This document shows positions 14,335 through 57,246 of a DNA stretch of 64,000 bases, in pieces. This DNA comes from a virus. A model generated the notes under the pieces. That model saw only the letters and a program-made list of their open reading frames with translations. It ran no database searches and was not told the DNA's origin. The stretch lies in IMG/VR virus record IMGVR_UViG_3300045988_149975, one strand, 5' to 3'. Position 1 is the first letter of the stretch; each line of letters begins with the position of its first letter. Made by a program: the position numbers and the translations under genes.

Positions 14335-14362
14335 ATTATAACATATTTTGATAAAAATTCAA
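14335..14362 (-). promoter_or_regulatory. candidate promoter for spoVS (TTGAAT, 16 nt, TATAAT)
   Basis: Minus strand TTGAATttttatcaaaatatgtTATAAT, about 90 nt upstream of the start codon. Confidence 0.3.
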
Positions 14363-14892
14363 CATTGATTTATAATTTTTTTCTCATCAATAATAGAGAA
14401 AAAATCATTAAATTTCAACATTACAAAATCTTGTGACTTAAACTTTCCTTTTACCTGACTTTGGTGCATTATAAGTACAGGTATTTTTCCATTAATGCAA
14501 TCATTTTCTGCCTGTTTAAACCATTCCTGAACGGAAGTCCATCCATTCTTATGATTTTTAAGTTCTAAATGTAAGAGAAAATTTACATTATCAGTATAAC
14601 ATACTACATCTCCTCGCAAAGCATTATTCTCAATTCCCTTTAAATAACCACCACTTGATGCTGTTCTACCGAATTTAAGTAAAGGAAAAATTTTATTCAA
14701 CTCATTGACTATTTTCCTTTCAAAATTTGCACCTTTAGTTTTAGAGGATTTACCTAAATTGCTTTTTTTAATTTGTTTTTCTAATTTCTCTATTTCAGGA
14801 CTGTCAGGAGCATTTTCTTTCAAGAAAACTAATTTATCTTTTAATAAATCAACCCTACGCATTAAACTTTCCGCTCCTATTACTATCTTCAA
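14359..14892 (-). CDS. putative PD-(D/E)xK nuclease (Holliday-junction-resolvase-like)
   Basis: GDVVCYTDNVNFLLHLELKNHK gives a D...ExK pattern; lies in the recombination/replication module. Confidence 0.3.
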   Translation of the reverse strand: MKIVIGAESLMRRVDLLKDKLVFLKENAPDSPEIEKLEKQIKKSNLGKSSKTKGANFERKIVNELNKIFPLLKFGRTASSGGYLKGIENNALRGDVVCYTDNVNFLLHLELKNHKNGWTSVQEWFKQAENDCINGKIPVLIMHQSQVKGKFKSQDFVMLKFNDFFSIIDEKKIINQC

Positions 14893-15331
14893 AATCTTTC
14901 AAGCGGCGGGAAAGTTCACGGCTCACAAGGAAAGTACCATCTTCATAAGATTTAAGAATATCACTTAAATAATCATACTTTTCAAGTGCATATTCCATTG
15001 CTTTCCTACTCCCCTCTGCAAAAGAGTCATTGAATACCCTTAACTCTTTTTCTGTTACACTCATTCGTGGAGGACATTCTGAAAATACCCTGCATTTCTC
15101 TTTATCAAAAATTGATTTAGCTTCCCTATATACCGCCCTTGCATCACTCATAAGTGTTCTTACATACATTCTCTGCTGCACAATAGCATTAAGATATTTA
15201 CTAATATCTGATGTGGATAAAATAGTTAAATCCTTGGGCAATGTAAGATAATCAATTTCTACATTTTTATTATTAAACAATACTACCCCATCTTCCTGTA
15301 ATTCTTTCTTAATTCTTTCTATATTTGTCAT
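14855..15331 (-). CDS. hypothetical protein
   Basis: 158-aa ORF. Confidence 0.45.
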   Translation of the reverse strand: MTNIERIKKELQEDGVVLFNNKNVEIDYLTLPKDLTILSTSDISKYLNAIVQQRMYVRTLMSDARAVYREAKSIFDKEKCRVFSECPPRMSVTEKELRVFNDSFAEGSRKAMEYALEKYDYLSDILKSYEDGTFLVSRELSRRLKDFEDSNRSGKFNA

Positions 15332-15339
15332 AACTTACC

Positions 15340-15855
15340 TCACTTATAATTTGTGGAAAACATTATTCCTACTGCTGATGTTTCACCATCTGTCATTCCC
15401 CAAGCATGGATAGGAGAATGTCCTAACCTCAAAGTTGCTATTCCTGCAACCTTTTTATTAGTAGATATGCCTACACCCACACCCCATGTTGGCTCTAAAG
15501 GTTTATTATCAATACTTAAATTATACTTACTTTCCTGCTTTAAACTTACATAATCCCTGCCATACTCAAATGTATCTTTATTTTCAGGCTTTAAGTTAAA
15601 CCTTTCACCGTTTAATTCTACATCAAAAGTTTGTTTACTATTATAAACTAAATCAGGGTCAGAAGTGTTCTTTTTAGTTTGAACACTCACTGACGCTGTA
15701 TTTTCCGTTCTGACAACTTCAGTTACTACAGGGGTACTAACTACCCTTTCTATAACTTTCTCACTTGTAGGTGGATTTATGTGGATATAAACGGCATATA
15801 TAATGCAAACTATTGCTATTATATAAGGTAACGTGTCTTTAATTTTTTCCCACAT
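15340..15855 (-). CDS. membrane-anchored protein (N-terminal TM helix)
   Basis: 171 aa; IIAIVCIIYAVYIHI hydrophobic segment. Confidence 0.4.
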   Translation of the reverse strand: MWEKIKDTLPYIIAIVCIIYAVYIHINPPTSEKVIERVVSTPVVTEVVRTENTASVSVQTKKNTSDPDLVYNSKQTFDVELNGERFNLKPENKDTFEYGRDYVSLKQESKYNLSIDNKPLEPTWGVGVGISTNKKVAGIATLRLGHSPIHAWGMTDGETSAVGIMFSTNYK

Positions 15856-16054
15856 TTACTTTATCCTTAAAATTAAAGAATAAACTAACAAGCAGGGTAT
15901 AGAACACTAAATAAAAGAAGTATAAATTAAGCCCTGTAAAATGTGAAGCACCATAAGCTGCTACTACAGTCCACAAACAAGCTGCCACATATACAGTTCC
16001 TACTACAATAGCCATTAAAAGTACAATAACTAAACCCATAAGTAAATATTTCAT
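15839..16054 (-). CDS. small integral membrane protein (2 TM)
   Basis: 71 aa, almost entirely hydrophobic. Confidence 0.4.
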   Translation of the reverse strand: MKYLLMGLVIVLLMAIVVGTVYVAACLWTVVAAYGASHFTGLNLYFFYLVFYTLLVSLFFNFKDKVNVGKN

Positions 16055-16921
16055 CTAATTTCCCCTTTCACACAAATCTTTAAATGCACACCATTTACAA
16101 TAACGTGTATTATCCTTTTTAGGAATGATTCCTTCTGCTACATACTTATTAATCTCCTTACAACGATTAAGCAAATCACTAATTAAATCTCTATCCCATT
16201 CAAAGGGAAATTCCTTCAATTCTTGTGTATCTTTACATTCATAAAGAAAAATAATCTTTCTAATAGGTTTAGGATATTCCTCTAAAAGTTCAAGAGTTTT
16301 ATCAAAGATTGCCATTTTCTTTTCCAACTTCTGCTCTTTTGTATATTTTCTACCATCCTCTAAAAAACTCTCTAATTTAGTTTTATAAAGATTTCTTAAC
16401 CATTCCCCATCACCTAAAAGAACTTTTTTACGCATTTCATCTAAACAATACATATATAAACTTGCTTGAAGTTTATGTTCAGGTTTTGCATCAGTTAAAG
16501 CATTAAAACCGTTACTATTAATACTCTTAATTTCAAGTATTGATAACCTGTCACTATCTTTAAGTAAACCATCTGTATTACCCATTACTTCATATTCCAC
16601 ATTAAATACAGGTGCCTCATCAAGTAAAAGTACGCCTGCTTCTTTTAAATAACCTTGTAATCTCTCATGTACAAAAGTGCCATTATTTAAAATGCGGAGG
16701 GAACGTGGGTCATCATTAGCATTAGTCTTTTTAGCAAAACAACGGTTATAATAAGAAGCCCTCATGCAACCTCCTATACCACTTGGACTATTCCATCCAT
16801 GCCCCCTATCCTCTGTTCCGCTATCCTTCATTAAAAGCATATCAATAGCAGGAATTAACAGGCTGTTCTTTGTAAGTGTATTTAAAGAGGGAACACTTCC
16901 TACTACTTTAAACTTCTTCAA
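16055..16921 (-). CDS. PD-(D/E)xK exonuclease, Cas4/RecB-nuclease-like, with a 4-Cys cluster
   Basis: N-terminal Cys plus C-terminal CKWCAFKDLC; DGLL...LEIKS (D..ExK). Confidence 0.55.
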   Translation of the reverse strand: MKKFKVVGSVPSLNTLTKNSLLIPAIDMLLMKDSGTEDRGHGWNSPSGIGGCMRASYYNRCFAKKTNANDDPRSLRILNNGTFVHERLQGYLKEAGVLLLDEAPVFNVEYEVMGNTDGLLKDSDRLSILEIKSINSNGFNALTDAKPEHKLQASLYMYCLDEMRKKVLLGDGEWLRNLYKTKLESFLEDGRKYTKEQKLEKKMAIFDKTLELLEEYPKPIRKIIFLYECKDTQELKEFPFEWDRDLISDLLNRCKEINKYVAEGIIPKKDNTRYCKWCAFKDLCERGN

Positions 16922-17367
16922 ATTACTGCTACCTCCTTAAAATCCTCTAATCTTGTTATCTGCCAAACTGCACCACCGTTGAATCTATACAAATATAAAT
17001 ACCCCACATCAATATAATTTAAAATATCAGCAGAAAGTTTAGAACTCTCCTTGCAATCTAATACATCACTCTCATTATAGTAATTATAAAAATCATAAGC
17101 CCTATAAGCAATATAATCTTTATCTTTAACTCTTATTGCAAGTAAGGGTATTCTATTACATTTAAGTGCCTCATTCTCAATCTTGCTTAAAATCTTCCCC
17201 TTTAAAATGTAATAATCTTTTTCAGTTGCTTTACACTCAATTAAATAATCATCTGTTACTACATCACCTTTTGCAAAATATAATGCGCCTGAAGCTATTA
17301 CTGTTTTTCCACCTAAACTTTCTGCTATAAATGTTTCATGCTTATTACTTAACTTCTTCGGTTTCAT
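16918..17367 (-). CDS. hypothetical protein (possible nuclease fold, D...ECK)
   Basis: 149-aa ORF. Confidence 0.4.
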   Translation of the reverse strand: MKPKKLSNKHETFIAESLGGKTVIASGALYFAKGDVVTDDYLIECKATEKDYYILKGKILSKIENEALKCNRIPLLAIRVKDKDYIAYRAYDFYNYYNESDVLDCKESSKLSADILNYIDVGYLYLYRFNGGAVWQITRLEDFKEVAVI

Positions 17368-17677
17368 CTTTCACATCCTCTGGTTTCCAAAAACAACAAA
17401 ATGTTCTACCTTCCTCTGTTACCATATCAAAAGGGGTAACAAAAGAATTTTGGCAGATGTCATTTTCGTCATAATATTTACAACTCTCACACCTTGAAAT
17501 GAAATGGGCAGCTTTCATTAAGGCTACATAAAGCCTTGTATCATAGCCTACATGAAAATCCAATACCTCACCTCCTTTATTGTAACTCTTGATAAGCAAA
17601 TTCACCAAAATATTTGAGTTCACCTGCTCTCCTTGCTTGTTTAGCCTCTTCCTCTGTTGTATAACACCATAGTTCAC
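17345..17677 (-). CDS. hypothetical protein
   Basis: 110-aa ORF. Confidence 0.4.
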   Translation of the reverse strand: MNYGVIQQRKRLNKQGEQVNSNILVNLLIKSYNKGGEVLDFHVGYDTRLYVALMKAAHFISRCESCKYYDENDICQNSFVTPFDMVTEEGRTFCCFWKPEDVKDETEEVK

Positions 17678-18753
17678 ATTCTTTTCACAATTTCAGCAAA
17701 CAATGATTCATTTTCCCTTAAAAGACGGACTAAATTATCTTGACCTTGTGCAAGCATTTGGGAATCCATGTAATACCACGCTCCCTTACGCTCTATAATA
17801 CCTTTAAGAACAGCTAATACAACTAACTCTTTAGCGGTATCAATAGAACCTTTAGGAAGTAATCCATCATCAGTATATAAATCGTATTCACCTGTTGTAA
17901 AAGCAGCACCTAATTTATTTTTCTGAATTTTCCATTTAATTACACGCCCTACAATTTTAGCATTAGTACCAGTGCCTTCTTTAATGTAATCGCCTGCCCT
18001 TAAACGGATTTCGATACTATTAGTAAACTTTTGGCTATTTCCTCCAGGAACAGTAGTAGGATCACCATAACCACCAATTTTATCCCTAAATTGATTTATG
18101 GATAAGACAGTAGTAGGCAGTTTACCATTCCTCTCCAAAGTATTATTAAAACTTTGAAATTTACCGTGATAAGTCTGTAATTTCAATGGTTTAATACCCA
18201 TTTGAGCAGTATCAGAAATATCTGTTTCAATATACTTTGTGGGTAACATGGCAGCAATAGAATCTATCACAATAAATTCCACACCCGCTTTTTGCAATTC
18301 TACTGCAATATCTAATGCTTGTTCCATACCTTCAGGTTGACAAAATAGTAATTTATCATTATCAATACCATTCTGCGCTCCCCATTCCTCACTATAACTA
18401 CCACTTTCAATTTGAATTAAAGCAGCTTGTAGGGGTATATCACCATCATCAGCTACTACCTCATATTCAAAATTGCCTTTAGTTATTTTCTTCTTATACA
18501 TATTCTGTACGGCAGCAATGGCTTTATAAGCAAGTAAAGATTTACCACTACTCTCTTGCCCTGCAAGTGTAATATATCGCCCCGAAGGTAAGCCACCACC
18601 TAATGCGTCATTAAGTGATACACTACCTAAAGGAATTTTGAAATTCATTTCATCATTTATATCTGCGCCCTTACGGATGGCATTTACGCCAAAGCGTTTG
18701 TTTATATCTTTTATTAGTGTATTTATATCTGCCATAATTTCCTCCTTTATCAT
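17674..18753 (-). CDS. RecA/UvsX-family recombinase
   Basis: ALGGGLPSGRYITLAGQESSGKS Walker A within a RecA-like N-terminal architecture. Confidence 0.7.
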   Translation of the reverse strand: MIKEEIMADINTLIKDINKRFGVNAIRKGADINDEMNFKIPLGSVSLNDALGGGLPSGRYITLAGQESSGKSLLAYKAIAAVQNMYKKKITKGNFEYEVVADDGDIPLQAALIQIESGSYSEEWGAQNGIDNDKLLFCQPEGMEQALDIAVELQKAGVEFIVIDSIAAMLPTKYIETDISDTAQMGIKPLKLQTYHGKFQSFNNTLERNGKLPTTVLSINQFRDKIGGYGDPTTVPGGNSQKFTNSIEIRLRAGDYIKEGTGTNAKIVGRVIKWKIQKNKLGAAFTTGEYDLYTDDGLLPKGSIDTAKELVVLAVLKGIIERKGAWYYMDSQMLAQGQDNLVRLLRENESLFAEIVKRM

Positions 18754-21348: not shown

Positions 21349-22074
21349 TTAAAGTCTTTTAAGTCCAGTAGCTTGCTGTACTTCTTTAGGCTCTTCTACT
21401 TCAGTTTCACCATAAGGTACAAACAAATTCTGTAATACACCCATAAAACCTTCAGTCTTTGCAATCTCCTTATATTTTTCAGGCAGTGATTCAATAATCT
21501 TTTCTTTAGCTTCCTCTGTTAAAGGTGCTTTAGACCAGTACAGAGGGTCTTTACCTGCGGGGCAATCATCTACCCTATCAAAGTTATAAGGATTTTTCTT
21601 ACCATTCTTACTTACATAATATGCTCTATCAAGTAAACCATACTTTTCTTTATTACGCTGAATAGCTGCAACATCAGAAGTACCTCTCACCATTACTCTT
21701 ACTTGGTCAGTATACTCAATAACTTTACCAGTAGGTACGCCATTTACTACCTCATCTTTTGTAGTTACAGTACCATCAAGTACAAGGAAGGCAGATTTAA
21801 TGGAGCGTTTATTAAGTTTACTTGCGTCAAAACTATCAGGCTGCTGACAACCTTTGCAATCAGGTTCACCAGTGCATACAAATACACGAGGTACAGTACC
21901 TACCTTAATAGTATGGGCGTAAAAAGAAAGCGGCTCATCAGTTAAGAAACGCATAAGTTTCTCTTCCCCATCTTTTACATAAAAATCATAAATACCAGTT
22001 CTACCTGAATTTGCTTTTGCTTCTTCACTCATTTTATTAACTGCGTCAAAACCTTTTTGAAAAAAACTTTTCAC
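21349..22074 (-). CDS. putative ssDNA-binding protein (gp32-like, Cys/His cluster)
   Basis: Sits between the polymerase and primase; VCTGEPDCKGCQ cluster; assigned by position and weak similarity only. Confidence 0.3.
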   Translation of the reverse strand: MKSFFQKGFDAVNKMSEEAKANSGRTGIYDFYVKDGEEKLMRFLTDEPLSFYAHTIKVGTVPRVFVCTGEPDCKGCQQPDSFDASKLNKRSIKSAFLVLDGTVTTKDEVVNGVPTGKVIEYTDQVRVMVRGTSDVAAIQRNKEKYGLLDRAYYVSKNGKKNPYNFDRVDDCPAGKDPLYWSKAPLTEEAKEKIIESLPEKYKEIAKTEGFMGVLQNLFVPYGETEVEEPKEVQQATGLKRL

Positions 22075-31748: not shown

Positions 31749-33148
31749 TTATGCCCCTAATTTTTCCACAATCTCATCTTTTGTAAAACCAAGGTTTTTA
31801 TAAAGACTCCGTGGATTTTCTACATATTCGTATTTTAAAATGGTAGTCTTACCATTTTCTTCCATTGTTTCATATTTAACTGTATCTGTATTCTTGCCTG
31901 CTTTTTCTACCTCACCTGCATAAATCCAAATATAATCATCAAATAATAGATTACCCCATAAAGGCTTCCAAACTTCCTCGTTGAAATTTTCTGCCATATA
32001 ATAGTAATCCTCTTTAGAACTTAATACTTTTGGTATACCTCTCATTAATAACTCAATCCTTTCTTTAACAGAATCTAATTTTATACTTTTACGAAAATTA
32101 TAGGTATTTGCCCACTTCATCCAACCTTCTATACTGGCTACCATACCTCTTGCATAGTCCAAATCTAAATCAGCAGTCTTTAATAGACTATCCAATTTTC
32201 TAAACCTGCGTTTTATCCTTTTTGCTGTACTCTTTCTTAATAAAACACAGTTGTTAGGAAATGTCCTATAACCAAGAAAGTCTACACCTTGCGTTATAGG
32301 AAATACATTACTTTTACTTAATAACAGGTTTAACTTATCATAAGCAAATACCTTCGCTTTTTCAGCTACCTCATGTAACTCCTTCTTATCATTACCGAAA
32401 ATTATAAAATCATCACAATACCTTATATATGCACTACATTTTAAATCATACTTTATATAAGTGTCTAATTCATTCATGTATAGATTACCAAACCACTGTG
32501 AAAGATAATTTCCAATAGGTACGCCCGCCTTTCTATGACCAAATTCCTCTACATATCTTTCAAGTTTTCCACGCATTATATCAGCATCTTTACGCCCTTC
32601 AAAATTCTTCAAATAACCTATATTAGCTTCTCTTGTTGCAAGGCTATCTATTATTATATCAAGAATACTTAATAAATCTTTATCTTTAATCTTTTTACGC
32701 AATATTATTTTCAATATTTCATGGTCAATATTTACATAAAATTGTGAAATATCAAGTTTAGCACAATACTTATACTTTCTTACATATTCAGAGCATTTTA
32801 TCATTCCCTTATGCTGCCCCTTACCTTTACGACAAGCATAACTATCATATATAAATAAACTATCCCAAATAGGCTCTAACACATTCATTATAGCATGATG
32901 TACTATTCTATCAGGATAATATGGAAGTACATAAATTAAACGCAATTTAGGCTCATACATTGAATAAATCCTATAAACGGAGTTCTTATAATTTCCATCC
33001 ATTAAATCTTTTTGTAATGATAATAGGTTAGCTTCCAAATTTTCTCTTACTTTAATAACCTCTGATAAATTTCCTTTACCTTTTCCTGCTTTTAATTCAG
33101 CAATTTTAAGATTTTCAATATCAATAATTCTATTCCAAAGATTTCCAT
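31749..33148 (-). CDS. diversity-generating retroelement (DGR) reverse transcriptase
   Basis: YIRYCDDFIIFG (YxDD); PIGNYLSQWFGNLYMNELD, the DGR-specific IGxxxSQ signature; N-terminal NLWNRIIDIENLKIAELKAGKGKGN. The conserved N-terminus extends upstream of the tracker start at 33038; see findings. Confidence 0.8.
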
Positions 33149-33397
33149 ATCTTCGTATTTGAAAAACACCCTCTCTATTAAAAAGTTTAACAAATTGGCA
33201 CTCTTTATAAAGAGTGCCAAAATGCTATTTAGGTATTTAGGTAAATTGATTTTCGCCTTAACTACTAACCCCTTTACCATCCTGTAATGTGTTTCTGCTT
33301 TCGCAGAGGATAGAGATTCAGCCGAAGGATTAGCTTTATACCTATTGTATGATACCTTCGTATCACTACAGCTACGCTCGCCGTTGTTAGAGTTCAC
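33092..33397 (-). CDS. doubtful ORF overlapping the TR and the RT 5' end (no convincing Avd features)
   Basis: 101-aa ORF; its C-terminal third overlaps the conserved RT N-terminus in another frame. Confidence 0.15.
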   Translation of the reverse strand: MNSNNGERSCSDTKVSYNRYKANPSAESLSSAKAETHYRMVKGLVVKAKINLPKYLNSILALFIKSANLLNFLIERVFFKYEDMEIFGIELLILKILKLLN

Positions 33398-33481
33398 ATT
33401 CGCTGAAGCATTATTGACATTAACTGAACGAGAACTGCAACTCGAACTGTTATTCCAGTTACTGCCGAGTTTCGCCTTTAT
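33362..33481 (-). repeat. DGR template repeat (TR)
   Basis: About 120 bp, near-identical to the VR except at roughly 25 positions. At every one of those positions the TR carries A on the minus (transcribed) strand. Confidence 0.75.
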
Positions 33482-33611
33482 AACCTCTACCCTTTTAGTT
33501 GCAACTATTTATATATATAAATTGGGGGTACGAGATGGTTGTCTACATTACCTCTCCAAGTTTATATCAACTTAAACACCACATTAACTTGAATTAATGG
33601 GCTACGCCAAC

Positions 33612-34673
33612 TCAATTCCCAAGTTTATGGAGCGGCTCACCACAGCCACGCCCGCCGCTGAAAGAGTCCACAAGCGCCGAAGCACCATTGACATCAACCG
33701 AACGAGAACCGCAACCCGAACCGCCACCCCAGAGACCGCCGAGCCTCGCCCTGTACAAAGTACCATAGCTTCTACCATAAGACTGGTCATCTACACCACT
33801 ATTATATACAGAATCATTCCAACCACTTGAACCGTTTACACCAACATCACTTGCCCATTGCCATAAGAAACCACAAGCATCTTCAAGCCCATAATTACTT
33901 ATCATTCTTCTGCCCGCTGTATCAACGTGTCCACCAGTTGTATTGGCATCTGTACTACCTTGTATATTAGTACCTTCATTACTTCCTTTTGCCGCCACCT
34001 GAAACTCATATCTCCACGGCAATCTTTTCTTTATATCAGCAAGTCTTTCTACAAACTGTTCACCATGAAATTTCTTTGTAGAAGCACCATCTGCTGTTGT
34101 TCCACCATTTACACTCACAAGTTTACTTCCATTCCACGAGTTTAAGTAAATGTCCATCCATATATCTACTTCAGGAATATAAACCATTCCTTCAGGTGAA
34201 CATTTTGGGCGATGAATTAAATCCCATACTGATTGTGGTAATATATCACCTGCTACATAACCACTTAATGTATGCCCGCTTATCGTACCCACATTTGTAC
34301 ATAAACAATGGAAACCACCTATTTTTCTACTATTATCTGCATTATAACCATTAGGTACAGTAGAATTTAAAGATAATACAAAATCTAATCCATTATTTTC
34401 TACTGCATACACATAAACATCTTTACCGTTTCTATTTGCCAAACTTAAAGACAATGTTTTATCCATATCAGTAGAGTATACATTATCATTTATTCTTAAA
34501 ACCATCCCCGCAGGTATTGTTACAGTAGTCTTATTTGTAGTCATTAAACTTTTTCTATTAAAATAAGTATCAATATACTTTGCCAAAATTTCTTCACTAA
34601 AATTTTCACCATCTATTAAAGAGTTTAAATATGCTCTAATTGTTTCTACCCTTAAATTATTTAATTTATCCAT
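33612..34673 (-). CDS. DGR target protein: tail fibre / receptor-binding protein with a C-type-lectin (FGE-like) fold VR at the C-terminus
   Basis: 353 aa; C-terminal ...YRARLGGLWGGGSGCGSRSVDVNGAS... is encoded by the VR; lies in the tail-fibre gene block. Confidence 0.7.
   Translation of the reverse strand: MDKLNNLRVETIRAYLNSLIDGENFSEEILAKYIDTYFNRKSLMTTNKTTVTIPAGMVLRINDNVYSTDMDKTLSLSLANRNGKDVYVYAVENNGLDFVLSLNSTVPNGYNADNSRKIGGFHCLCTNVGTISGHTLSGYVAGDILPQSVWDLIHRPKCSPEGMVYIPEVDIWMDIYLNSWNGSKLVSVNGGTTADGASTKKFHGEQFVERLADIKKRLPWRYEFQVAAKGSNEGTNIQGSTDANTTGGHVDTAGRRMISNYGLEDACGFLWQWASDVGVNGSSGWNDSVYNSGVDDQSYGRSYGTLYRARLGGLWGGGSGCGSRSVDVNGASALVDSFSGGRGCGEPLHKLGN
33636..33755 (-). repeat. DGR variable repeat (VR) at the 3' end of the target gene
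   Basis: Matches the TR 33362-33481. All mismatches are TR-A to VR-G/C/T on the coding strand; locally GC-rich. Confidence 0.75.
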
Positions 34674-34969: not shown

Positions 34970-35197
34970 TTATATAATTAAGAATAAATACCATACCCCT
35001 AAAACCGCACCTAATATTATAAAATACTTTATGTATATTAAAATATAAAGCGCAATTAAATCATACATGGTCATTACATGGGCAGAGGTACGATTACTAA
35101 TACAATAACTAAATACTATACAAACTATTACTGCTAATACAAACCATACTGCTAATGCTATCTCTAAAACCCCAATCATTCTTCTACCTCTTTCCAT
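34970..35197 (-). CDS. small membrane protein
   Basis: 75 aa, two hydrophobic helices. Confidence 0.35.
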   Translation of the reverse strand: MERGRRMIGVLEIALAVWFVLAVIVCIVFSYCISNRTSAHVMTMYDLIALYILIYIKYFIILGAVLGVWYLFLII

Positions 35198-35886
35198 CCT
35201 TGCGGATATGCTTCAGGACTCCATACATTATTATCTATTACACTTTCATAAATTTTTCCATTGAATTTTACTTTGTCACCTTTCATATAAGGATTAGTTG
35301 AAGATGGTTGCTCCCAATCTAATATTTCTCCCTCACTTGTCAGCACTTTTGCAAATAAAGAGGGCGCAGAAGTTGGTGTCCATCCTTCTTGAGATGTATG
35401 ATTTTGTAATACTTTGTATAATACATTATTATATAATACTTTATCACCTACTACATATTCTTTACTATTACCATTCCAGTGAGGGAATACTTCGGTCATT
35501 TTTAACGCCGCTCCATCACTAATAGAACGCAGTTTAGTTTGATAAGTATTCTTTGTTTCTACTAAATCATCATCTGCTAATGACATCATCATAGCATTTA
35601 TGGCTAAAGTTTGTAATTCATTTTTTGCTGCCGCTGCTTCTTGTTCATCTAACTCATCTTGTGTTGGCACATAAGGTGGCTCTTCTTCATAAACTACTTC
35701 ACCATCTACTTCCTTGCGTATATACACTTTACCATCCGTATTACCTATAAGTAATTGATAATCTTCCTCATTAATCTCTATATAACCTTCATCTAAAAGT
35801 TCTTGTATTCTTTCTTCTGTCATTTCTTCTTTTACATAAGTTTCTTGACGATTTCCATTTTCATCGAACTTAATAATATATGTCAT
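35176..35886 (-). CDS. protein with two CBM5/12-like carbohydrate-binding repeats (tail-associated)
   Basis: GDKVLYNNVLYKV...GWTP and YMKGDKVKFNGKIYESVIDNNVWSP repeats; acidic N-terminal half. Confidence 0.4.
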   Translation of the reverse strand: MTYIIKFDENGNRQETYVKEEMTEERIQELLDEGYIEINEEDYQLLIGNTDGKVYIRKEVDGEVVYEEEPPYVPTQDELDEQEAAAAKNELQTLAINAMMMSLADDDLVETKNTYQTKLRSISDGAALKMTEVFPHWNGNSKEYVVGDKVLYNNVLYKVLQNHTSQEGWTPTSAPSLFAKVLTSEGEILDWEQPSSTNPYMKGDKVKFNGKIYESVIDNNVWSPEAYPQGWKEVEE

Positions 35887-35946
35887 ATTATCATTCCTTT
35901 CTTTCAGTTTTCATAATTTATATGCCCATCATCAGAAAGTATATCT

Positions 35947-36237
35947 TTGGACAATCTCCAAAGGTACTAATGGTTGGGCGAGGGAGAGTAGCACAGGATT
36001 CACAATTCAATGGGGGAGAGGCACAACATCTTCAAATTGGAATACAAAAATTTTTTTAATAGAAGTTTTAGTAGTATTTATACTATAAATTTAGATATTT
36101 ATAATCCTAATGGTAGTCCTGCAAGTGGGGTTTATCAGGACAGCGGCGGTATTACGTATTTTGATAATGATGGTTTTTACGGCGGTTTTTCACGAGTTGG
36201 TTACACGTTTTTTTGGATAGCAGTAGGTATATCTTAA
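35947..36237 (+). other. silent tail-fibre C-terminal cassette 1 (plus orientation, internally frameshifted)
   Basis: Begins with a 33-nt stretch identical to the inverse of the main gene at 37058-37090, then encodes ARESSTGFTIQWG. After an A5T7 run it continues in another frame ...NFFNRSFSSIYTI...GYTFFWIAVGIS*. Confidence 0.5.
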
Positions 36238-36240
36238 TGT

Positions 36241-36286
36241 TTGCTGAAATGCAATTTTTAAAAATTTAAAAATTGCATTTCAGCAA
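36241..36286. repeat. 46-bp perfect palindrome between convergent cassettes
   Basis: TTGCTGAAATGCAATTTTTAAAAATTTAAAAATTGCATTTCAGCAA; hairpin that could act as a bidirectional terminator or a recombination element. Confidence 0.6.
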
Positions 36287-36308
36287 ACAAATTAGCTTAT
36301 TCCAATGG

Positions 36309-36556
36309 CTATCCAATTACATCTATTAAACCACGGGCTACCCCCATATCTTGTTGATATAAGTAAAATCCACTTTTATCTACAGTTCTTACTTGAAATT
36401 CTCCATCATATCTTGAGGGATTATTAGTATCAGTATTTACTAAACTTACCATCATAGTATAATAAGTAGTAAAAGTTCGAGGAAAATTGAATTTACCAAT
36501 TTGTTGTTCAGATGCACTATTAGTGCCTACTACTTGCCCCCATTGAATTGTGAATC
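36309..36556 (-). other. silent tail-fibre C-terminal cassette (minus orientation)
   Basis: Starts with GGATTCACAATTCAATGGGGG (GFTIQWG), a 21-nt perfect inverted copy of 35996-36016; encodes ...FNFPRTFTTYY...GLIDVIG*. Confidence 0.45.
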
Positions 36557-36561
36557 CTTAA

Positions 36562-36816
36562 AAATTCACTTTATAAACCCCATTTTATACTGGTTTTACT
36601 ATACAATGGGGTTCAACTGGTACTTTAAGCGGCACTGCAACAATTTCTTTTCCTCGCACATTTTCTACTGTTTATCAAGTTATACCTGTCGGAAATGTAG
36701 AAGAAACAAATGAAAACTGGGGTTTCCCATTAAATGAACGTCCTACAACAAAGAATTTTAAAGCTGCACATTGGTATAGTGGTCAGTGGAGATACATTGC
36801 AGTAGGAATTAGCTAA
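36562..36816 (+). other. silent tail-fibre C-terminal cassette 2 (plus orientation)
   Basis: Contains TACTGGTTTTACTATACAATGGGG, a 24-nt perfect inverted copy of the expressed gene at 37022-37045. Encodes GFTIQWGSTGTLSG...ISFPRTFSTVYQ...WRYIAVGIS*; its stop overlaps the main gene stop inside the palindrome GGAATTAGCTAATTCC. Confidence 0.5.
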
Positions 36817-38242
36817 TTCCAATAGCATACCATAATAAATATCCTCCTGTAGTATACATTTGACCCCAAAGCCAATTAAAATTTGTTGTAGAAAAAGATT
36901 TTATACGGGAAGTATATTTTTCGTCATTAGTATTTAAACCTGTTTGTGTTAAATATACTCCATATAAAGTTGTAAACTTTCTGGGAAAAGTTGTAGTACC
37001 GGCTACTGCTTTGCCTGTAGTTCCCCATTGTATAGTAAAACCAGTAGATGATTCACGTGCCCAACCATTAGTACCTTTGGAGATTGTCCATCCATTATTA
37101 GTAATACTACCACTTCCGCCGCCGATTCCTGCACCATCAGCAGGGTCAGGTGAAGGCTGTGTACTTCCTGTTGTACCTGCTACTTTACATACCAAAAAAC
37201 AACCTGCATATTGCTTACCTACAAGTTTACGCACTGTATCTCTTGTAACAGTTTCATTAGGCTGCCAATATCCAGTATCTACATCTGTTAAAACTCTTTT
37301 CCATACATAATTAGTATCTTCACTTGCTGTATCAATAGAAAATTGCAATACATAATTTACTGCATACCCATTTCCACTCTCTGTTGTAATCTCATAAAAA
37401 ACATGATTAGTATGCGCTCTTACTACTGTCAAATTACCAGTTTGAGAAGGATAATTATATGTATTACCTTCCCCACCAATTCCCACTATGAGCATTGAAT
37501 TTGCAGGTAAAGCATTACCTATTGCATAAGGTGAATTATCTAATACTCCCCCGCTTAACCCTATTTGACTTAATTGACTATAAGTCTTAATATTTGTTAA
37601 ATCATTAAGCGATTTTTTATTTACCACATCATAATCATTTACAGGGCTTTTATCTGTCTGTAAACTTTTAAATAATGTAGGGATTACATTCATATCACTA
37701 CCTAAAGTTACTAAATTCGTAACAGATGTATTTACCACAGGGGCAATCCACTCTTCTGTTGTATAACCACTTACCCATAAAGTATCTGCATTACCAGTTG
37801 TTAGTTTTAAGCCCGCATATTTTATATTATTATATGTAAAAGTACAAGGCTCTGCTTTGGCATCATCACTATTTGTAGTATTAAAATTTACATTACATTC
37901 ATTAGAATTGTGTACTTTTTGTAAATTAATGTCACAATTTACCGCTGCTGTACTACCATTTTTAGTAGACATTACTACCTTCAATGAGCAAGCAGAGAAT
38001 TTTGCAATATCTATATTATCTAATACTGCTAAAGGCAATACCTGTGTAGTACCTGTTCCTAAAGTTGTTTCATGAATTAAGAATTTAGCATTAGTTCCTT
38101 TAAACTGTACAGGCATTACCTGCCAACGAGAAGCATCATCTACATATTCTTTTAAAGAATTAAAATTCTCATTTAATAAAGGGGCAAGTTCTGTATCTAC
38201 ATATTCTTCCCCTGTAAAAATGTGTAAATCTCCTAAAGCCAT
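36809..38242 (-). CDS. tail fibre protein whose C-terminal roughly 85-aa module is exchangeable with the silent cassettes
   Basis: 477 aa; C-terminus ...STGFTIQWGTTGKAVAGTTTFPRKFTTLYG...GGYLLWYAIGIS*, homologous to the three cassettes. Confidence 0.6.
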   Translation of the reverse strand: MALGDLHIFTGEEYVDTELAPLLNENFNSLKEYVDDASRWQVMPVQFKGTNAKFLIHETTLGTGTTQVLPLAVLDNIDIAKFSACSLKVVMSTKNGSTAAVNCDINLQKVHNSNECNVNFNTTNSDDAKAEPCTFTYNNIKYAGLKLTTGNADTLWVSGYTTEEWIAPVVNTSVTNLVTLGSDMNVIPTLFKSLQTDKSPVNDYDVVNKKSLNDLTNIKTYSQLSQIGLSGGVLDNSPYAIGNALPANSMLIVGIGGEGNTYNYPSQTGNLTVVRAHTNHVFYEITTESGNGYAVNYVLQFSIDTASEDTNYVWKRVLTDVDTGYWQPNETVTRDTVRKLVGKQYAGCFLVCKVAGTTGSTQPSPDPADGAGIGGGSGSITNNGWTISKGTNGWARESSTGFTIQWGTTGKAVAGTTTFPRKFTTLYGVYLTQTGLNTNDEKYTSRIKSFSTTNFNWLWGQMYTTGGYLLWYAIGIS

Positions 38243-38254
38243 TCATTTACCTCC

Positions 38255-39448
38255 TTAATCATTATATCTCAATATAATCCATCCGTCTTGTCCTGGACTT
38301 GCACCACCTGCATAAGAAATGCCATTTGCACCATCATGTCCTTTAACCCAAGTCCAACCATCATCACTTTTTCGTGAAACATAACCACCACTACCTGCAC
38401 CACCGCCTCTTGCAGTAGCACCAAAAGCAGTAGTATTTCCACCTGCTGTACCACTTCCTGCACTTACAGGAGTTTCACCTTTTCTTGTAGCATCACTACC
38501 ATTAGTGCCACCTTTACCTACTACAAGACTATACTTTTGACCCGCTGTAACATTTACAGTACCACTTACTAATTCGCCAGTACCGCCATCACCACCATAA
38601 CCTACTCCATGGTAGACATCATCTTGGTCATCATAATCGGCTCTTGCAGTACCACCTGCACCACCACCTGCACCATAAAGTGAATAGTTTACAGTTTTTA
38701 CATTTGCAGGGCAAGTCCATTGCTGACTACTTGTAATTTTTAAATAATTTTTATAACCACTATATGTAACCTCTACTTGAAAAGGGTCAATATACAATGC
38801 TGCGTGTTTATTATTATTCTCATACATTCTAATCCACAAATCAAAAGTATTAACGCCGCCTTTTAAGCCAACTTCAATATTCTCACCTAAAGTCATCCAT
38901 TTAATAACGCCTGGCATATTACTCTCATCTGCTCTACCTGTACTATAAGGATAGAAAATACTTTCAGCTAATGTATGCTGTCCTGTATCTGTTAAAATAT
39001 CGTTACCAAAACGTGTTTGAAACTGATAAGCAGAGTTTCTTCTATAATTATGATAATCATTGTAACTACCTGCCCATTTAACTTTAGAAGTTATAGTATA
39101 TAAACCATCTTCAGGAACATTAACAGTACAACTTAAAACCTTGGCTAAACCATAACTTGCACTCCCGCCTGATATATACTTGTAAAAATGTCCTGTAGAA
39201 ACAAACGGTTCACCTTGTTCAAATGCAGATGTTAAAAAATAGTACCTTATACCGTCTACTATTACACCTGCATTTACACTCATATCAGAACGTGTTGTAG
39301 TAAGAGGAGCATAAAGATCTTTATTAAATGTTTTTATCCGTACATATTTTCCATTATAAAAATCTCTATAATCATCATATAAAGGGAGGCTATGTTTTGC
39401 TGAACCTATTGTTAAATTTAATCTTGTTTTTGTATCTATATTAGCCAT
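38255..39448 (-). CDS. glycine-rich tail fibre protein
   Basis: 397 aa with long GxGG-rich tracts, typical of phage receptor-binding fibres. Confidence 0.5.
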   Translation of the reverse strand: MANIDTKTRLNLTIGSAKHSLPLYDDYRDFYNGKYVRIKTFNKDLYAPLTTTRSDMSVNAGVIVDGIRYYFLTSAFEQGEPFVSTGHFYKYISGGSASYGLAKVLSCTVNVPEDGLYTITSKVKWAGSYNDYHNYRRNSAYQFQTRFGNDILTDTGQHTLAESIFYPYSTGRADESNMPGVIKWMTLGENIEVGLKGGVNTFDLWIRMYENNNKHAALYIDPFQVEVTYSGYKNYLKITSSQQWTCPANVKTVNYSLYGAGGGAGGTARADYDDQDDVYHGVGYGGDGGTGELVSGTVNVTAGQKYSLVVGKGGTNGSDATRKGETPVSAGSGTAGGNTTAFGATARGGGAGSGGYVSRKSDDGWTWVKGHDGANGISYAGGASPGQDGWIILRYND

Positions 39449-39452
39449 AACC

Positions 39453-40061
39453 TTAACTCCCTATAAAAATAGTATTACCATTAGTAGAGGTAAGTGAACC
39501 ATCATCATTAAATACAGCCACATTATCAGGAATTACAGAATCATTGAGTTTCCCTTTTGATACCAAAACAGGAATCTGCCCTTCCTTTACGCCTAAATTT
39601 AATACACCTGTAGGAATTTTTCCATCTGCCCCTACCTGTACTATTTGATTAGCCTTTGTACCAGTATCAATTAAAGATGTAGCTATATGGTTATTATCAC
39701 CTACAGCTACTAATTGCCCATTTTCAACACCAGTATACATTAATGACATTTTAACTTTTTTAGTAAGAGGGTCTATCAAATTATCTACCCTACTAATATC
39801 AATGTGCATACTATCAACATATTCTTTATCTACATAAGTTAAAGTAAGCTGCGCTATCTTAACCCATAATCTATCATGTACATTCGCTAAAACATATAAT
39901 GCTAACTCATCTGTCCTAAAACACGCTTGCCCTAATTCCAAATTAGAAACTGGAAAGCTAATACCACTATTCTGTGATAAAAGACTTTGCCAGTTTTCAT
40001 TCATTGGTGCAAGAGAATTAGCTATTGTCCATTCCTCTTGTATTGTCTGAACATTTTGCAA
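39453..40061 (-). CDS. tail fibre / baseplate-associated protein
   Basis: 202-aa ORF in the fibre block. Confidence 0.45.
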   Translation of the reverse strand: MQNVQTIQEEWTIANSLAPMNENWQSLLSQNSGISFPVSNLELGQACFRTDELALYVLANVHDRLWVKIAQLTLTYVDKEYVDSMHIDISRVDNLIDPLTKKVKMSLMYTGVENGQLVAVGDNNHIATSLIDTGTKANQIVQVGADGKIPTGVLNLGVKEGQIPVLVSKGKLNDSVIPDNVAVFNDDGSLTSTNGNTIFIGS

Positions 40062-40064
40062 TTC

Positions 40065-40736
40065 TTACTCCCCCTTATACGCAAATTCACCAAACAACTC
40101 TTCTCTTAACTCTTTAGCGACTTTTGCTGCTTCCTCTTCAGTGTCATAACTGCCACCATAAAAACGCTTACCATCTTTGCTACAATACGCTTTCCATTTA
40201 CCCGTTTCCTTATTATAAGAATAACCCTTACGCCTATGATTCATATTGTTTTGCCTTACTGTACAAATTCTTAAATTGCACTTCCTATTATCTGCTTTAT
40301 CGTGGCTAATATGGTCAACTATCATTCCTTCAGGGCAATCCATAATAAACCTGTTTAAACGAATATGTGTATGTGTAGTTTGCCAATAACCTTTAGAACC
40401 TAATGTAAAATAATGCGGTTTTACTTTCTCAATATCCTCCGTATCTATTAAAGTATAATTTCCCTTATTATCATACATTTTTGTAACTTCACCATCTATA
40501 TAATATGTGTTATAAGCCCTGTTCTTTAAAGAAATTGCCTTTCTCATATTACAACCACAAGAAGTTGTACTACCTTGTCTTAAAGAACGATATATAACAG
40601 GTTTTACATTTCCACAATCACATTGACATAAAACCTGCGCTTCAGTATTGCCTGACTTTGTAATCTTGTCAGGCAATAATCCAATAATTTCCATTCTACC
40701 ATATCTTTCCCCAATTTGAGGAATAATCTTTCTCAT
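40065..40736 (-). CDS. HNH homing endonuclease with a C-terminal AP2 DNA-binding domain
   Basis: Cys-rich N-terminus; HNH region MIVDHISHDKADNRKCNLRICTVRQNNMNH; AP2-like KWKAYCSKDGKRFYGGSYDTEEEAA. Confidence 0.7.
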   Translation of the reverse strand: MRKIIPQIGERYGRMEIIGLLPDKITKSGNTEAQVLCQCDCGNVKPVIYRSLRQGSTTSCGCNMRKAISLKNRAYNTYYIDGEVTKMYDNKGNYTLIDTEDIEKVKPHYFTLGSKGYWQTTHTHIRLNRFIMDCPEGMIVDHISHDKADNRKCNLRICTVRQNNMNHRRKGYSYNKETGKWKAYCSKDGKRFYGGSYDTEEEAAKVAKELREELFGEFAYKGE

Positions 40737-56358: not shown

Positions 56359-57246
56359 TTATGTTCGAGGTATCTCGTGTATAGTCGATAGACTTTTTTC
56401 AGATAATTTATAACTCATTGATTTTGGTATAAATTCTTTTATGTAGTCGCAAAACTTTGTAAAACTTTTTGAAGGTATTCTTATCATCGGATAACCACAT
56501 TCAAGCTGAACATAGGTTTCAATTTTAATAATTTCATTTAAAGAATTGCTCAATAACTGACACTCCTCAATAGTAAAACAACAAGTTGCTATCTTACCCC
56601 AATTTCCTTTACCTTTACTACCATCATCTGCATACCATATAGCGATTGATAAAGGATTGAGCATTTCCTTAATGTTATTAGGAATAATCTTTGTTTTACC
56701 TTTATAGAACATTTCCCTTAACTGTTTTATATCTCCAAAGGCTTTTGTCCTTTTCCTAACCGATTGATAACCTTCTTTAGTTTTTCTATAATAACTACTG
56801 CTTATATCATTGCCAAAGAAACTTGCCTTATAGTTTAAGTAATCTTCTTGTTTAAGCGAATGACTTAAATAAAGTACCCTTCCATCAAGATAACCGTCAC
56901 CTAAAATGCTACCAATTACAACACTTCTTTGATTATCTGTTAAGTGCTTATAATCACTTTGTACAGCAGATATGCCATAATGTGTTAGCCATTTTGTAAC
57001 TGTACTATTCTTTACATTAAACTTTTCGCCGACATCTTTCTTCCTACCACCATTTTGAAAAACCTCTAATATCTCCTCTTTCGGTGGTATATAAGCAAAA
57101 TGTTCAAAAGTTCCTAACTTATACTCTTTAACAAGTCTTTTTATAACTTTTAAACTTACACTAAAATGTTTTGCAACTAATTTCTGACTTTTTAAGTCAT
57201 TATATACTTTTTGTAAATCTTCTTTTGCAATATAAATCTTTTTCAT
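56359..57246 (-). CDS. LAGLIDADG homing endonuclease (two-motif, intron-encoded), N-terminal HTH
   Basis: VIGSILGDGYL and SIAIWYADDGSKG motifs; its stop lies between P8 and P7' of the downstream intron core. Confidence 0.8.
   Translation of the reverse strand: MKKIYIAKEDLQKVYNDLKSQKLVAKHFSVSLKVIKRLVKEYKLGTFEHFAYIPPKEEILEVFQNGGRKKDVGEKFNVKNSTVTKWLTHYGISAVQSDYKHLTDNQRSVVIGSILGDGYLDGRVLYLSHSLKQEDYLNYKASFFGNDISSSYYRKTKEGYQSVRKRTKAFGDIKQLREMFYKGKTKIIPNNIKEMLNPLSIAIWYADDGSKGKGNWGKIATCCFTIEECQLLSNSLNEIIKIETYVQLECGYPMIRIPSKSFTKFCDYIKEFIPKSMSYKLSEKSLSTIHEIPRT

Follow-up and report, generated by a model that had tools for sequence, protein, structure and literature searches.

The window, by which we mean the whole 64-kb stretch of DNA analysed here, comes from an uncultivated gut phage of ∼100 kb. 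It carries an expressed tail-fibre gene on the minus strand (36809..38242; 477 aa), an open reading frame made up of a constant head, a sequence termed alpha, a beta-type spacer, a sequence termed beta and a terminal tip, tip E. The N-termini of the fibre homologues (>100) were 88–98% identical and their C-termini were different. Fibre residues 399–475 matched the Pfam family Gp53-like_C (PF21882) at 28.4 bits, above the cut-off of 24.9, which places them in this family, and a profile built from 28 tips matched 6CT8, 6CL6 and 4MTM at ∼1e-6. As judged from these matches, the tip is a homologue of the foot domains of R-type pyocins and AP22 gp53 (PDB 6CT8, 6CL6, 6CXB, 4MTM), with which it shares the G-x-T-x-QWG entry strand.

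Three silent tip cassettes accompany the fibre gene. The variable part of tip E (36809..37022, minus strand), which is now expressed, matches the P0002 C-terminus at 99% identity; the same tip is silent and inverted in the relatives L002, L004, L016 and L012. Silent tip C lies on the plus strand (variable part 36612..36816; cassette from its beta arm, 36588–36816). It is intact, has no start codon and is 98.7% identical to the expressed tips of P0009 and P0057, and its stop codon overlaps that of the fibre within the palindrome GGAATTAGCTAATTCC. Silent tip B lies on the minus strand (variable part 36290..36536) and has its expressed counterpart in P0049 (93% identity). In this cassette, the last ∼19 codons are out of frame owing to a 1-nt deletion near 36352: the in-frame end reads ...VIG(stop), and the conserved WIAIGIS(stop) lies in another frame. 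Silent tip A, on the plus strand (variable part 36017..36237), is 85–87% identical to the expressed tips of P0021, P0030 and P0036, and a 1-nt deletion near 36055 leaves GFTIQWG and the remaining tip in different frames. Both frameshifts are present in an independent MEGAHIT contig (L046, 99.985% identical). In the present genome only tips E and C are intact, and A and B are frameshifted. The silent E copy of L002 and L004 also leaves the family consensus near its end when translated and is apparently frameshifted. The three silent modules in alternating orientation that a preliminary description had reported are therefore real; the GFTIQWG...GIS(stop) architecture that it ascribed to all of them is intact in cassette C and is broken by the 1-nt frameshifts in A and B.

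The convergent ends of A and B are separated by a hairpin with a perfect 25-bp stem (36238..36289; RNA fold −32.7 kcal/mol, z = −6.9). It is probably a bidirectional terminator, as predicted from this fold, and was not called by a simple terminator scan. The heads of B and C diverge from a short non-coding spacer (36559..36587), which is kept in L010, L012, L002 and L016; its stop codons mean that cassettes B and C both stay silent.

Three pairs of perfect inverted repeats connect the expressed fibre (36809–38242, minus strand) to these promoterless cassettes. The alpha pair is 32 nt long and 100% identical: arm 1 (37059..37090, minus strand) covers the codons WTISKGTNGWA within the expressed gene and has equivalents in L010, L012, L013 and L016, and arm 2 (35948..35979, plus strand) forms the start of the distal cassette A. 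The beta pair is 24 nt long, with arm 1 (37023..37046, minus strand) at the codons TGFTIQWG of the expressed gene and arm 2 (36588..36611, plus strand) at the start of cassette C; drawn more widely, it extends over 33 nt at 88% identity. The gamma pair is 22 nt long and 100% identical, with arm 1 (36537..36558, minus strand) in the recoded codons GFTIQWG at the start of cassette B and arm 2 (35995..36016, plus strand) inside cassette A. The alpha arms lie at codons other than those of the beta and gamma arms, and the pairs are nested as alpha[ beta[ ] gamma[ ] ]. Each arm is present in exactly two copies in the window, even with up to four mismatches allowed, and the chance expectation for perfect inverted repeats of at least 22 nt in 1.3 kb of the same composition is ∼5e-7. 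The existence of three perfect pairs had been recognised previously, with coordinates that were 1–2 nt off: a pair given as 33 nt from 35947 is the 32-nt alpha pair, one given as 21 nt is the 22-nt gamma pair, shifted by 1–2 nt, and the 24-nt beta pair had its correct length and was placed 1 nt off.

Synonymous recoding, in which the same amino acids are written with different codons, distinguishes the repeat classes, as the preliminary description had proposed. In alpha, the degenerate codons are identical in 8/8 cases, and in the next stretch, ARESSTGFTIQWG, 11/12 degenerate codons differ, a contrast with P = 0.0076 relative to random draws from the codon usage of the same phage. Across the five arrays compared, inverted partners share 22–33 nt and direct pairs at most 11 nt; the non-partner inverted pair of C and B shares at most 9 nt. 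Beta and gamma have only CAATGGGG in common. The class is fixed per tail, with beta always on E and C and gamma always on A and B, and both arms are perfectly conserved over 22–24 nt in lineages that are 3–9% different elsewhere. In the distant relative L045 (fibre identity 61%), the nested pairing is kept and the arm sequences are different: only a 13-nt core is common to its four cassettes, and the class-specific part lies on the core's other side. A SNP in alpha (GGT>GGA) occurs in both arms of L013, and the base after alpha appears to have been converted in L012, which together point to concerted evolution. The L045 arms, the covariation in L013 and the recoded direct pairs indicate that partners are set by identity alone, as would be expected of homologous recombination. 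Visual inspection of the arm sequences revealed no dyad-symmetric consensus common to alpha, beta and gamma.

The relatives of this phage were then compared with respect to the order of their tips. The family of the phage is represented in public metagenomes by >100 fibre variants, with no fewer than 25 types of tip. In L002 and L004, whose flanks are 97% identical to those of the window, precisely the segment between the beta arms (window 36588–37046) is inverted, which brings tip C into expression and silences tip E. The four tips of L010 and the window recur in L012, there in the order B+ A- C+ E-, which reads as the product of an alpha plus a gamma inversion, and an alpha-inverted layout was seen in L013-15. 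Events at alpha, beta and gamma are thus all represented among the relatives. Every one of the four tips was found elsewhere as an expressed fibre end, which gives more than two C-termini for one constant N-terminus, and the exchange is reciprocal, the displaced tip occupying the silent slot of its partner. This reciprocity rejects non-reciprocal gene conversion from silent cassettes in the style of pilin or VSG systems, in which the displaced tip would not sit in the donor slot. The relatives with the beta isomer (L002) or the alpha plus gamma isomer (L012) are 3–9% diverged. Differing configurations occur only between genomes at least 3% diverged, and genomes with identical flanks have one configuration, so fast switching at alpha and beta is at most conjectural; the rate of switching is something that we infer. 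The frameshifts in silent cassettes (A, B and apparently E in L002 and L004) further suggest that selection seldom acts on some of the cassettes.

The ends of the assembled contigs provided a second line of evidence. Two contigs (L001, L011) end exactly 55 nt past the first base of gamma arm 1, and two more (L002, L017) end 55 nt past the first base of the arm equivalent to gamma arm 2; these four contigs come from four samples. A further contig (L004) ends on the last base of gamma arm 1. All contigs that break inside the array (5/5, from five different assemblies) therefore break exactly at a gamma arm boundary. Such ends imply that the same arm plus tail follows on two different sequences in those samples, a de Bruijn signature which shows that both gamma orientations coexist within single samples. 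Two other contigs were set aside: a 101,499-bp HMPC19 contig thought to end in the array has ends that map near 38.3–39.8 kb, in a Gly-rich gene, and the start of L046 lies 150 nt before alpha, which does not fit a k-mer junction at the arm. We are highly confident that inversions between the arms of the three repeat pairs exchange one receptor-binding tip for another, a proposal of the preliminary description that is now supported by the isomers in L002/L004 and L012, the expressed counterparts, the contig ends and the foot-domain homology.

Read in the direction of the gene, the layout is head, alpha[ beta[ tip E > < tip C ]beta gamma[ tip B > < tip A ]gamma ]alpha. A flip of the beta segment (36588–37046) would place tip C on the head, a flip of the alpha segment (35948–37090) would place tip A there, and an alpha flip followed by a gamma flip (35995–36558) would bring in tip B. 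Since the pairs are nested, no inversion ever makes direct repeats of a pair. The nesting may be read as a binary decision tree, and relatives show the hierarchy delta > alpha > {beta, gamma}, in which a mid-domain would be chosen and then a tip. The crossovers would most likely arise by general, homology-dependent recombination at the perfect arms of 22–33 nt, catalysed either by a phage RecA/UvsX-like protein with its nucleases or by replication-linked template switching. Homologous recombination is blind to the distinction between inversion and deletion, and selection would therefore keep identity between inverted partners only, recoding the same amino acids (ARESSTGFTIQWG) wherever cassettes lie in direct orientation. 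We do not think that a sequence-specific invertase takes part. The complete proposal, a nested tip-inversion switch with a homology-driven catalyst, is in our estimate evenly balanced between being right and being wrong.

Flip-flop by homologous recombination depends on a RecA-type or annealing recombinase, or on replication. Recombination genes of this kind are present in the window, all on the minus strand. A RecA/UvsX-like recombinase (17674..18753) matched Pfam RecA at 6e-40, together with RecA_C, and a UvsX-like PHROG at 5e-49; we infer that it is the candidate catalyst. Recombination nucleases with Pfam and PHROG matches occupy 14359..17367, namely two PD-(D/E)XK proteins (14359–14892 and 16918–17367) that match Holliday-junction-resolvase PHROG families and a Cas4-like exonuclease (16055–16921; Pfam/PHROG match). 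On these annotations, the phage appears to encode a full homologous-recombination toolkit. The mechanism has points against it. The usual efficient minimum for RecA-type recombination lies at or above 22–33 nt, and the arms fall short of the repeats usual for flip-flop by homologous recombination, which exceed the minimal efficient processing segment by far and typically run to hundreds of bp. A tyrosine recombinase with a requirement for identical overlaps, encoded by the host or by an unannotated ORF, could explain the class specificity just as well, and the strict conservation of beta and gamma also fits a recognition site.

These points lead to the alternative of classical site-specific inversion, in which the recombinase either comes from the host or is a phage protein that has diverged beyond recognition by Pfam and PHROGs. 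The three classes would then have similar binding arms and differ in their crossover (overlap) sequences, which would restrict recombination to like pairs. To our knowledge, every phage tail-fibre switch, including those in the literature that we searched, uses a dedicated invertase. The site-like length of the arms (22–33 nt), their strict conservation across lineages and the presence of CAATGGGG in the beta, gamma and L045 arms speak for such an enzyme, as does the large number of genome ORFs that carry no annotation and could harbour one. No serine or tyrosine recombinase was recognised, however, in the ∼95–101 kb of genome examined. A regex scan of the six frames of the window for their motifs found none, Pfam and PHROG scans of selected window ORFs found no resolvase, invertase or integrase, and the precomputed Pfam annotations of L018, L021 and L040, the relatives from which the rest of the genome was reconstructed (L040 and the array-bearing L011 share one contig), contained no PF00239- or PF00589-type protein. 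The earlier observation that the window shows no invertase gene thus holds, and extending the search for a serine invertase or an Rci-like recombinase to the remainder reconstructed from relatives, as had been suggested, recovered none. No relative of the phage was found in 185,579 bacterial genomes, which gives no sign of lysogeny or integrase biology. Further, no shared dyad-symmetric consensus was seen by eye, alpha uses other codons than beta and gamma, the L045 arms differ with their class-specific part on the opposite side of the core, and an orientation-selective invertase needs no recoding of 11/12 codons. We regard this alternative as the less likely one, though it is the most serious rival. 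With no recognisable invertase and no site common to the three repeat classes, the Mu G or R64 style of mechanism put forward in the preliminary description is not established.

The array could also be imagined as no programmed switch at all, a set of decaying relics in which isomers are rare accidents and mixed orientations reflect co-occurring strains. Two of the three silent cassettes are frameshifted and silent E in L002/L004 looks so as well, configurations differ only among lineages at least 3% apart, and the relatives L003, L007 and L008 have no array. Against this, the four-tip nested layout and exact arm pairing are kept from 98% to 61% fibre identity as the tips turn over, arm identity is maintained with partners that co-vary, the recoding exceeds what drift predicts, the silent cassettes are otherwise 85–99% identical to expressed, functional tips, and the contigs stop at gamma boundaries in all five assemblies. 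We consider relics improbable. An assembly artefact, in which the repeats and alternating modules stem from chimeric joining of strain variants, is more improbable still and close to negligible: metagenomic contigs do frequently break or mis-join in the array region, but the same arrangement came independently from different assemblers and different samples: L001 agrees with the window at 100% identity and the MEGAHIT k141 contig L046 at 99.985% over 6.5 kb. Being below the k-mer length of the assemblies, the arms alone are unable to produce a collapse.

Switching of host range by tail-fibre inversion is a textbook phenomenon that has been linked to dedicated invertases and, for the most part, to temperate phages. 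In Mu and P1, the invertase gene lies adjacent and acts on a common site of 26–34 bp. As in the Mu G and P1 C segments, inversion in the present phage exchanges the C-terminal receptor-binding part of the fibre on a constant N-terminal part, with repeats inside the coding sequence and the alternatives kept on the other strand. A single repeat pair gives Mu and P1 two states, whereas three nested pairs and four tips are found here; no invertase was recognised, the arm sequences are class-specific, and the phage looks virulent, not being found in bacterial genomes. Of the features of serine-invertase systems (Gin/Cin/Pin/Min), the exchange of the fibre C-terminus is present (L002, L004, L012 and the expressed counterparts of all cassettes), no PF00239 gene lies in or beside the element, and three arm classes take the place of a single gix/cix/mix-like site consensus, an imperfect dyad around a 2-bp core. 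Systems of this type further involve a recombinational enhancer and depend on Fis. Mu Gin and P1 Cin are dedicated invertases for fibre switches (summarised in preprint 10.64898/2026.02.14.705889).

The p15B Min system and the R64 shufflon resemble the array in having several invertible segments, which invert singly or grouped and give one adhesin or fibre more than two C-terminal variants. In these systems (for R64, Rci and sfx sites), one recombinase acts on one site consensus family and any inverted pair can recombine, whereas each arm here has exactly one partner, the nesting is strict and direct pairs share at most 11 nt. Independent or joint segment inversion giving more than two C-termini is common to R64 and the present phage; no adjacent rci-like tyrosine recombinase gene was found (no integrase-family match or motif), nor were repeated sfx-type sites with a shared core and many recombining pairs. 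The Rin shufflon of Bifidobacterium prophages reportedly rearranges the distal end of a gut-phage fibre gene among cassettes, in a temperate phage. A similar rearrangement of the fibre's distal end among cassettes characterises the array and the BV01-like shufflon; BV01-like and Rin phages are temperate, whereas the present phage has three orthogonal arm classes and no recognised recombinase. The tail-fibre shufflon of BV01-like Phocaeicola phages is recombinase-flanked with one shared 10-bp directional motif, and viromes contained all of its configurations (PMC13596623).

Isomers produced by homology alone offer a different comparison. Plastid and herpesvirus isomers arise by homology-driven flip-flop between inverted repeats. 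The array likewise has coexisting isomers, no dedicated recombinase identified and arm identity as the sole common feature, but with a multiplexed set of in-frame arms of only 22–33 nt it rewires a protein. For the fibres of R-type pyocins and AP22 gp53, we know of no inversion switching, and their diversity lies between strains. Cyanophage inversion isomers of ∼30 kb, a further case of homology-driven flip-flop in which isomers coexist and no dedicated recombinase has been identified, involve repeats of 400–700 nt or longer that flip large genome blocks, with no coding consequence (bioRxiv 10.64898/2026.02.14.705889).

A search of GTDB genomes with the fibre found no relative, hence no host clue and no prophage copy, and IMG/VR contained only one relative, which lacks the array. 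The window region 35000–39500 had no blastn match among INPHARED phages, and the exact arm sequences had none in IMG/VR and GTDB genomes. With no copy in 185,579 bacterial genomes, the phage looks virulent. The array adjoins a DGR. A role of the neighbouring DGR reverse transcriptase in the exchange is ruled out because the exchange is reciprocal, and an HNH-AP2 homing endonuclease (40065–40736), considered as another participant, is rejected because its gene is missing from both L010 and L012, which bear the array. With the DGR alongside, the phage would combine the switching of cassettes with mutagenic retrohoming, on two adjacent host-recognition proteins.

Taken in its widest form, the proposal is that a virulent phage carries programmable, multiplexed inversion without a dedicated invertase, in which general recombination (RecA/UvsX-type or replication-coupled) would be addressed by orthogonal in-frame arms of 22–33 nt, combined with deletion-forbidding recoding, binary-tree nesting and an adjacent DGR. 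We put this forward tentatively, with slightly less than even confidence. No recombinase-less or codon-recoded fibre inversion system was described in the literature covered by our search, which was not exhaustive. The analysis shows a hierarchical four-tip fibre inversion with no recognisable invertase in a widespread gut phage family of ∼100 kb, and its codon-level design looks as if it makes recombination favour inversion over deletion. Should homology drive the crossovers, the choice among synonymous codons would be a selectable trait that controls genome rearrangement, and the design would offer engineers a basis for orthogonal inversion switches that need no recombinase. The switch explains the repeated assembly breaks in these phage genomes. 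As the silent tips belong to the repertoire of the phage, they matter for the prediction of host range from metagenomes.

The tail-fibre gene (36809-38242, minus; 477 aa) lies in an AT-rich window (G+C 32.8%) whose minus strand carries nearly all genes, with a Gly-rich protein gene upstream and a CBM_5_12 protein gene (35176-35886) downstream. Three copies of the final ~75-95 fibre codons, each without a promoter or start codon, lie in the interval from the fibre stop to the CBM gene: the silent tip cassettes C (36588-36816, plus), B (36558 down to about 36290, minus) and A (35948-36237, plus); the expressed tip is termed E. A repeat search recovered the three perfect inverted pairs of the preliminary description, with coordinates that differ from it by 1-2 nt: alpha (32 nt; 35948-35979 / 37059-37090), beta (24 nt; 36588-36611 / 37023-37046) and gamma (22 nt; 35995-36016 / 36537-36558). 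Each arm has two copies and no more across the 64 kb (≤4 mismatches allowed), and the chance expectation for one such inverted pair is ~5e-7. In gene direction, the order is head, alpha, spacer, beta, tip E, reversed tip C, reversed beta, a 29-nt stop-rich spacer, gamma, tip B, a hairpin, and then A, gamma, spacer and alpha in reverse. The pairs are nested as alpha[ beta[ ] gamma[ ] ], and no inversion can make direct repeats of any of them. The stop codons of E and C overlap within the palindrome GGAATTAGCTAATTCC. An 8-nt palindrome (TTAGCTAA; 36809-36816) is common to these convergent tips and the source of both stops, and beta inversion leaves this junction unchanged in sequence. A perfect hairpin (25-bp stem; -32.7 kcal/mol, z = -6.9) separates B from A.

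The corresponding loci were fetched from relatives, and the tips and perfect inverted repeats were annotated on each. The obtained results showed identical arm sequences and an identical four-tip array, in an order that varied exactly as inversion predicts. The window shares the reference order E+ C- B+ A- with L001, L010, L011 and L046, while L002, L004, L016 and L017 express C and hold E in the silent slot, as after beta inversion. L012 reads B+ A- C+ E-, the product of alpha plus gamma inversion of the L010 set, and L013-L015 have the gamma pair first and the beta pair second, an alpha-inverted layout. The L002 equivalent of 36588-37046 aligned in reverse at 97.6% identity, with forward flanks on both sides. 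The class of the tails was constant: E and C types always accompanied beta, and A and B types always gamma. These orders uphold the tip-swapping inversion at three pairs that had been proposed from the sequence, and inversion at these arms very probably swaps tips in nature. One-way gene conversion from the silent cassettes was rejected, since the exchange among relatives is reciprocal. In a distant relative (L044, 7218-8261), whose contig ends inside the array, the tip order E+ X+ Y- Z+ is not derivable from the nested scheme.

The fibre's final ~80 residues matched Pfam Gp53-like_C above threshold. A profile of 28 tips matched R-type pyocin fibres at their C-terminal 'foot' (6CT8, 6CL6, 6CXB) and the putative tail-fibre protein 4MTM, at ~1e-6; judged by these similarities, the tips are receptor-binding modules. 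Public metagenomes yielded over 100 homologous fibres, carried on ~95-101 kb contigs, with N-terminal ~380 residues 88-98% identical and very different C-termini. The 48 distinct tip sequences extracted, roughly at least 25 types when grouped by eye, all start with WTISKGTNGWARESSTGFTIQWG, and most end in ...IGIS. Tip E matched that of the homologue P0002 (99%), and all three silent cassettes correspond to the expressed tip of some relative: C to P0009/P0057 (98.7%), B to P0049 (93%) and A to P0021/P0030/P0036 (85-87%).

In function, the array follows the same idea as Mu G, P1 C, p15B Min and the shufflon. A motif scan of all frames of the window gave no serine or tyrosine recombinase motifs, and no site-specific recombinase emerged when selected candidate ORFs were scanned against Pfam and PHROG, in line with the preliminary description, which saw no invertase in the window. 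The remaining ~35 kb of the genome was reconstructed from relatives L018, L021 and L040, the last forming one 95-kb contig with the array-bearing L011. It encodes methylases, a radical-SAM protein, RtcB, ArdA, small early ORFs, a tRNA array, dUTPase, DNA ligase and terminase; genes for a resolvase, an invertase or an integrase were not found there, and the suggested search for a serine invertase or Rci-like recombinase returned no recognisable candidate. The array therefore differs from both the serine-invertase and the Rci families, as it has no common site and no recognised recombinase gene, and the mechanism suggested earlier, in the style of Mu G or R64, was not established. A paper on a Bifidobacterium prophage reportedly presents one gut-phage fibre shufflon. 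Another, with an adjacent recombinase, has been described in BV01-like gut phages (PMC13596623), and tail-fibre genes are enriched for programmed inversions (PMC9881135). No account of a nested fibre inversion that lacks a recombinase and has recoded codons appeared in our literature search. The phage was not found among 185,579 bacterial genomes, and the nearest isolate, Bacillus phage BCD7, shares only 35% portal protein identity.

The codon usage of the arms bears on how the crossovers arise. Beta and gamma occupy common codons (GFTIQWG), yet they differ at every variable third position, and the spacer ARESST is also recoded, with switches between the six-fold Ser and Arg codon families. 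The degenerate codons are identical in 8/8 cases within alpha and immediately afterwards different in 11/12 (P = 0.0076 even when codons are drawn at random from the usage of this phage), which agrees with the synonymous codons reported earlier between repeat classes. In the five arrays compared, inverted arms that are designated partners have 22-33 nt in common; for direct-orientation pairs and for the inverted pair of non-partners the figure is ≤11 nt. A homology-driven process, being blind to inversion versus deletion, would need this recoding, while an orientation-selective invertase would have no need of it; a tyrosine recombinase requiring identical overlap regions could, however, mimic the class specificity. 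A distantly related phage, L045 (fibre head 61% identical, motif GLTLQWG), retains nested pairing with different arm sequences, and the class-specific part lies on the opposite side of a shared 13-nt core.

The window also encodes a recombination toolkit: a RecA/UvsX-like protein (17674-18753), a Cas4-like exonuclease (16055-16921), two PD-(D/E)XK proteins matching Holliday-junction-resolvase PHROG families (14359-14892 and 16918-17367) and a weak SSB-like match (21349-22074; PHROG E = 3e-4). L013 carries an alpha SNP in both arms and, in L012, the base after alpha appears converted; heteroduplex repair would produce both. Against homology stands the length of the arms, which is very short for a RecA-type process. 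Read at the sequence level, the design favours homology over motif, and we give homology-driven crossovers about an even chance; they would use the short orthogonal arms as substrates for general recombination or for template switching.

Inside the array, five contigs come to an end, each from a different assembly. Those of L001, L011, L002 and L017 (four samples) end exactly 55 nt past the first base of a gamma arm, and that of L004 at the arm's last base. Contigs from a k=55 de Bruijn graph stop at the first k-mer common to two paths; a terminal 55-mer starting at the arm's first base therefore means that 'arm plus tail' is preceded by two sequences in the sample, which is the recombinant junction of gamma inversion. 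At 22-25 nt, the arms could not by themselves break a k=55 assembly. These junctions indicate that gamma isomers coexist within samples, the contig-end evidence being confined to this pair, and genomes differing in alpha or beta state have flanks at least 3% diverged. The gamma state is phenotypically silent while E or C is expressed, which may explain why the polymorphic pair is gamma.

Most relatives have an additional ~220 aa mid-domain, itself modular, between head and alpha, which the window fibre does not have. In L012, a fourth, outer pair, delta (39 nt, codons SIHSALPINSVLEY; 6200-6238 / 8499-8537), brackets and swaps a 260-aa long cassette comprising an alternative mid-domain and tip; L010 retains the distal delta arm alone (8454-8492), and L003, L007 and L008 have no array. 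Past the CBM gene, ~1.3 kb downstream of the array, lies an active-looking diversity-generating retroelement (31749-34673, minus). A reverse transcriptase (31749-33038) and a template repeat (~33359-33480) are accompanied by an Mtd-like target gene (33612-34673; PF21916 in relatives), whose 3' end carries the variable repeat (~33633-33755). Nearly all mismatches between the repeats fall at template adenines, where the variable repeat varies among relatives.

Selfish elements are abundant and vary in presence between near-identical relatives (window 61387-63798, 8792-11671, 40065-40736 and 56359-57246; L018 5834-7996). Inteins occur in the large terminase (803 aa, versus 543 aa in L022/L023), in the ribonucleotide reductase and, with LAGLIDADG, in the L018 RNA ligase (720 aa, versus 357 aa in the window version without them), and the structural module holds free-standing HNH-AP2 and LAGLIDADG genes. 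A QueC-family gene (Pfam on the L018 homologue) and, judged by sequence only, apparent QueE-like and TGT/DpdA-like genes (loci: window 7512-8090 and 12904-13545, and L018), together with several DNA methylases just past the window start, suggest 7-deazaguanine and methyl DNA modification. An array of ten tRNA genes (L021 764-2486) lies just past the window's high end, upstream of the terminase region, and the relative L024 has 17-nt tandem iterons near an apparent genome end or origin.

All three silent modules described earlier are present; two details were overlooked. Cassettes A and B each carry a 1-nt deletion (near 36055 and 36352, respectively) relative to the intact copies in L010, and both are therefore frameshifted. 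As the deletions recur in L046 (an independent MEGAHIT contig, 99.985% identical), they are real traits of the phage lineage and not consensus errors. Owing to the shift in A, most of that tip reads in frame from an ATG that falls within the gamma arm (ORF 36010-36237, 75 aa), probably by coincidence. In this genome, full-length fibres would be expected from the E/C (beta) switch only: alpha inversion would join the head to frameshifted A, and alpha plus gamma inversion would join it to B, whose C-terminal strand is wrong. The translation of the silent E copy in L002/L004 leaves the family consensus near its end, which suggests that it is likewise frameshifted. The frameshifts therefore point to a noticeable decay rate of the silent cassettes, which limits how often selection sees them.
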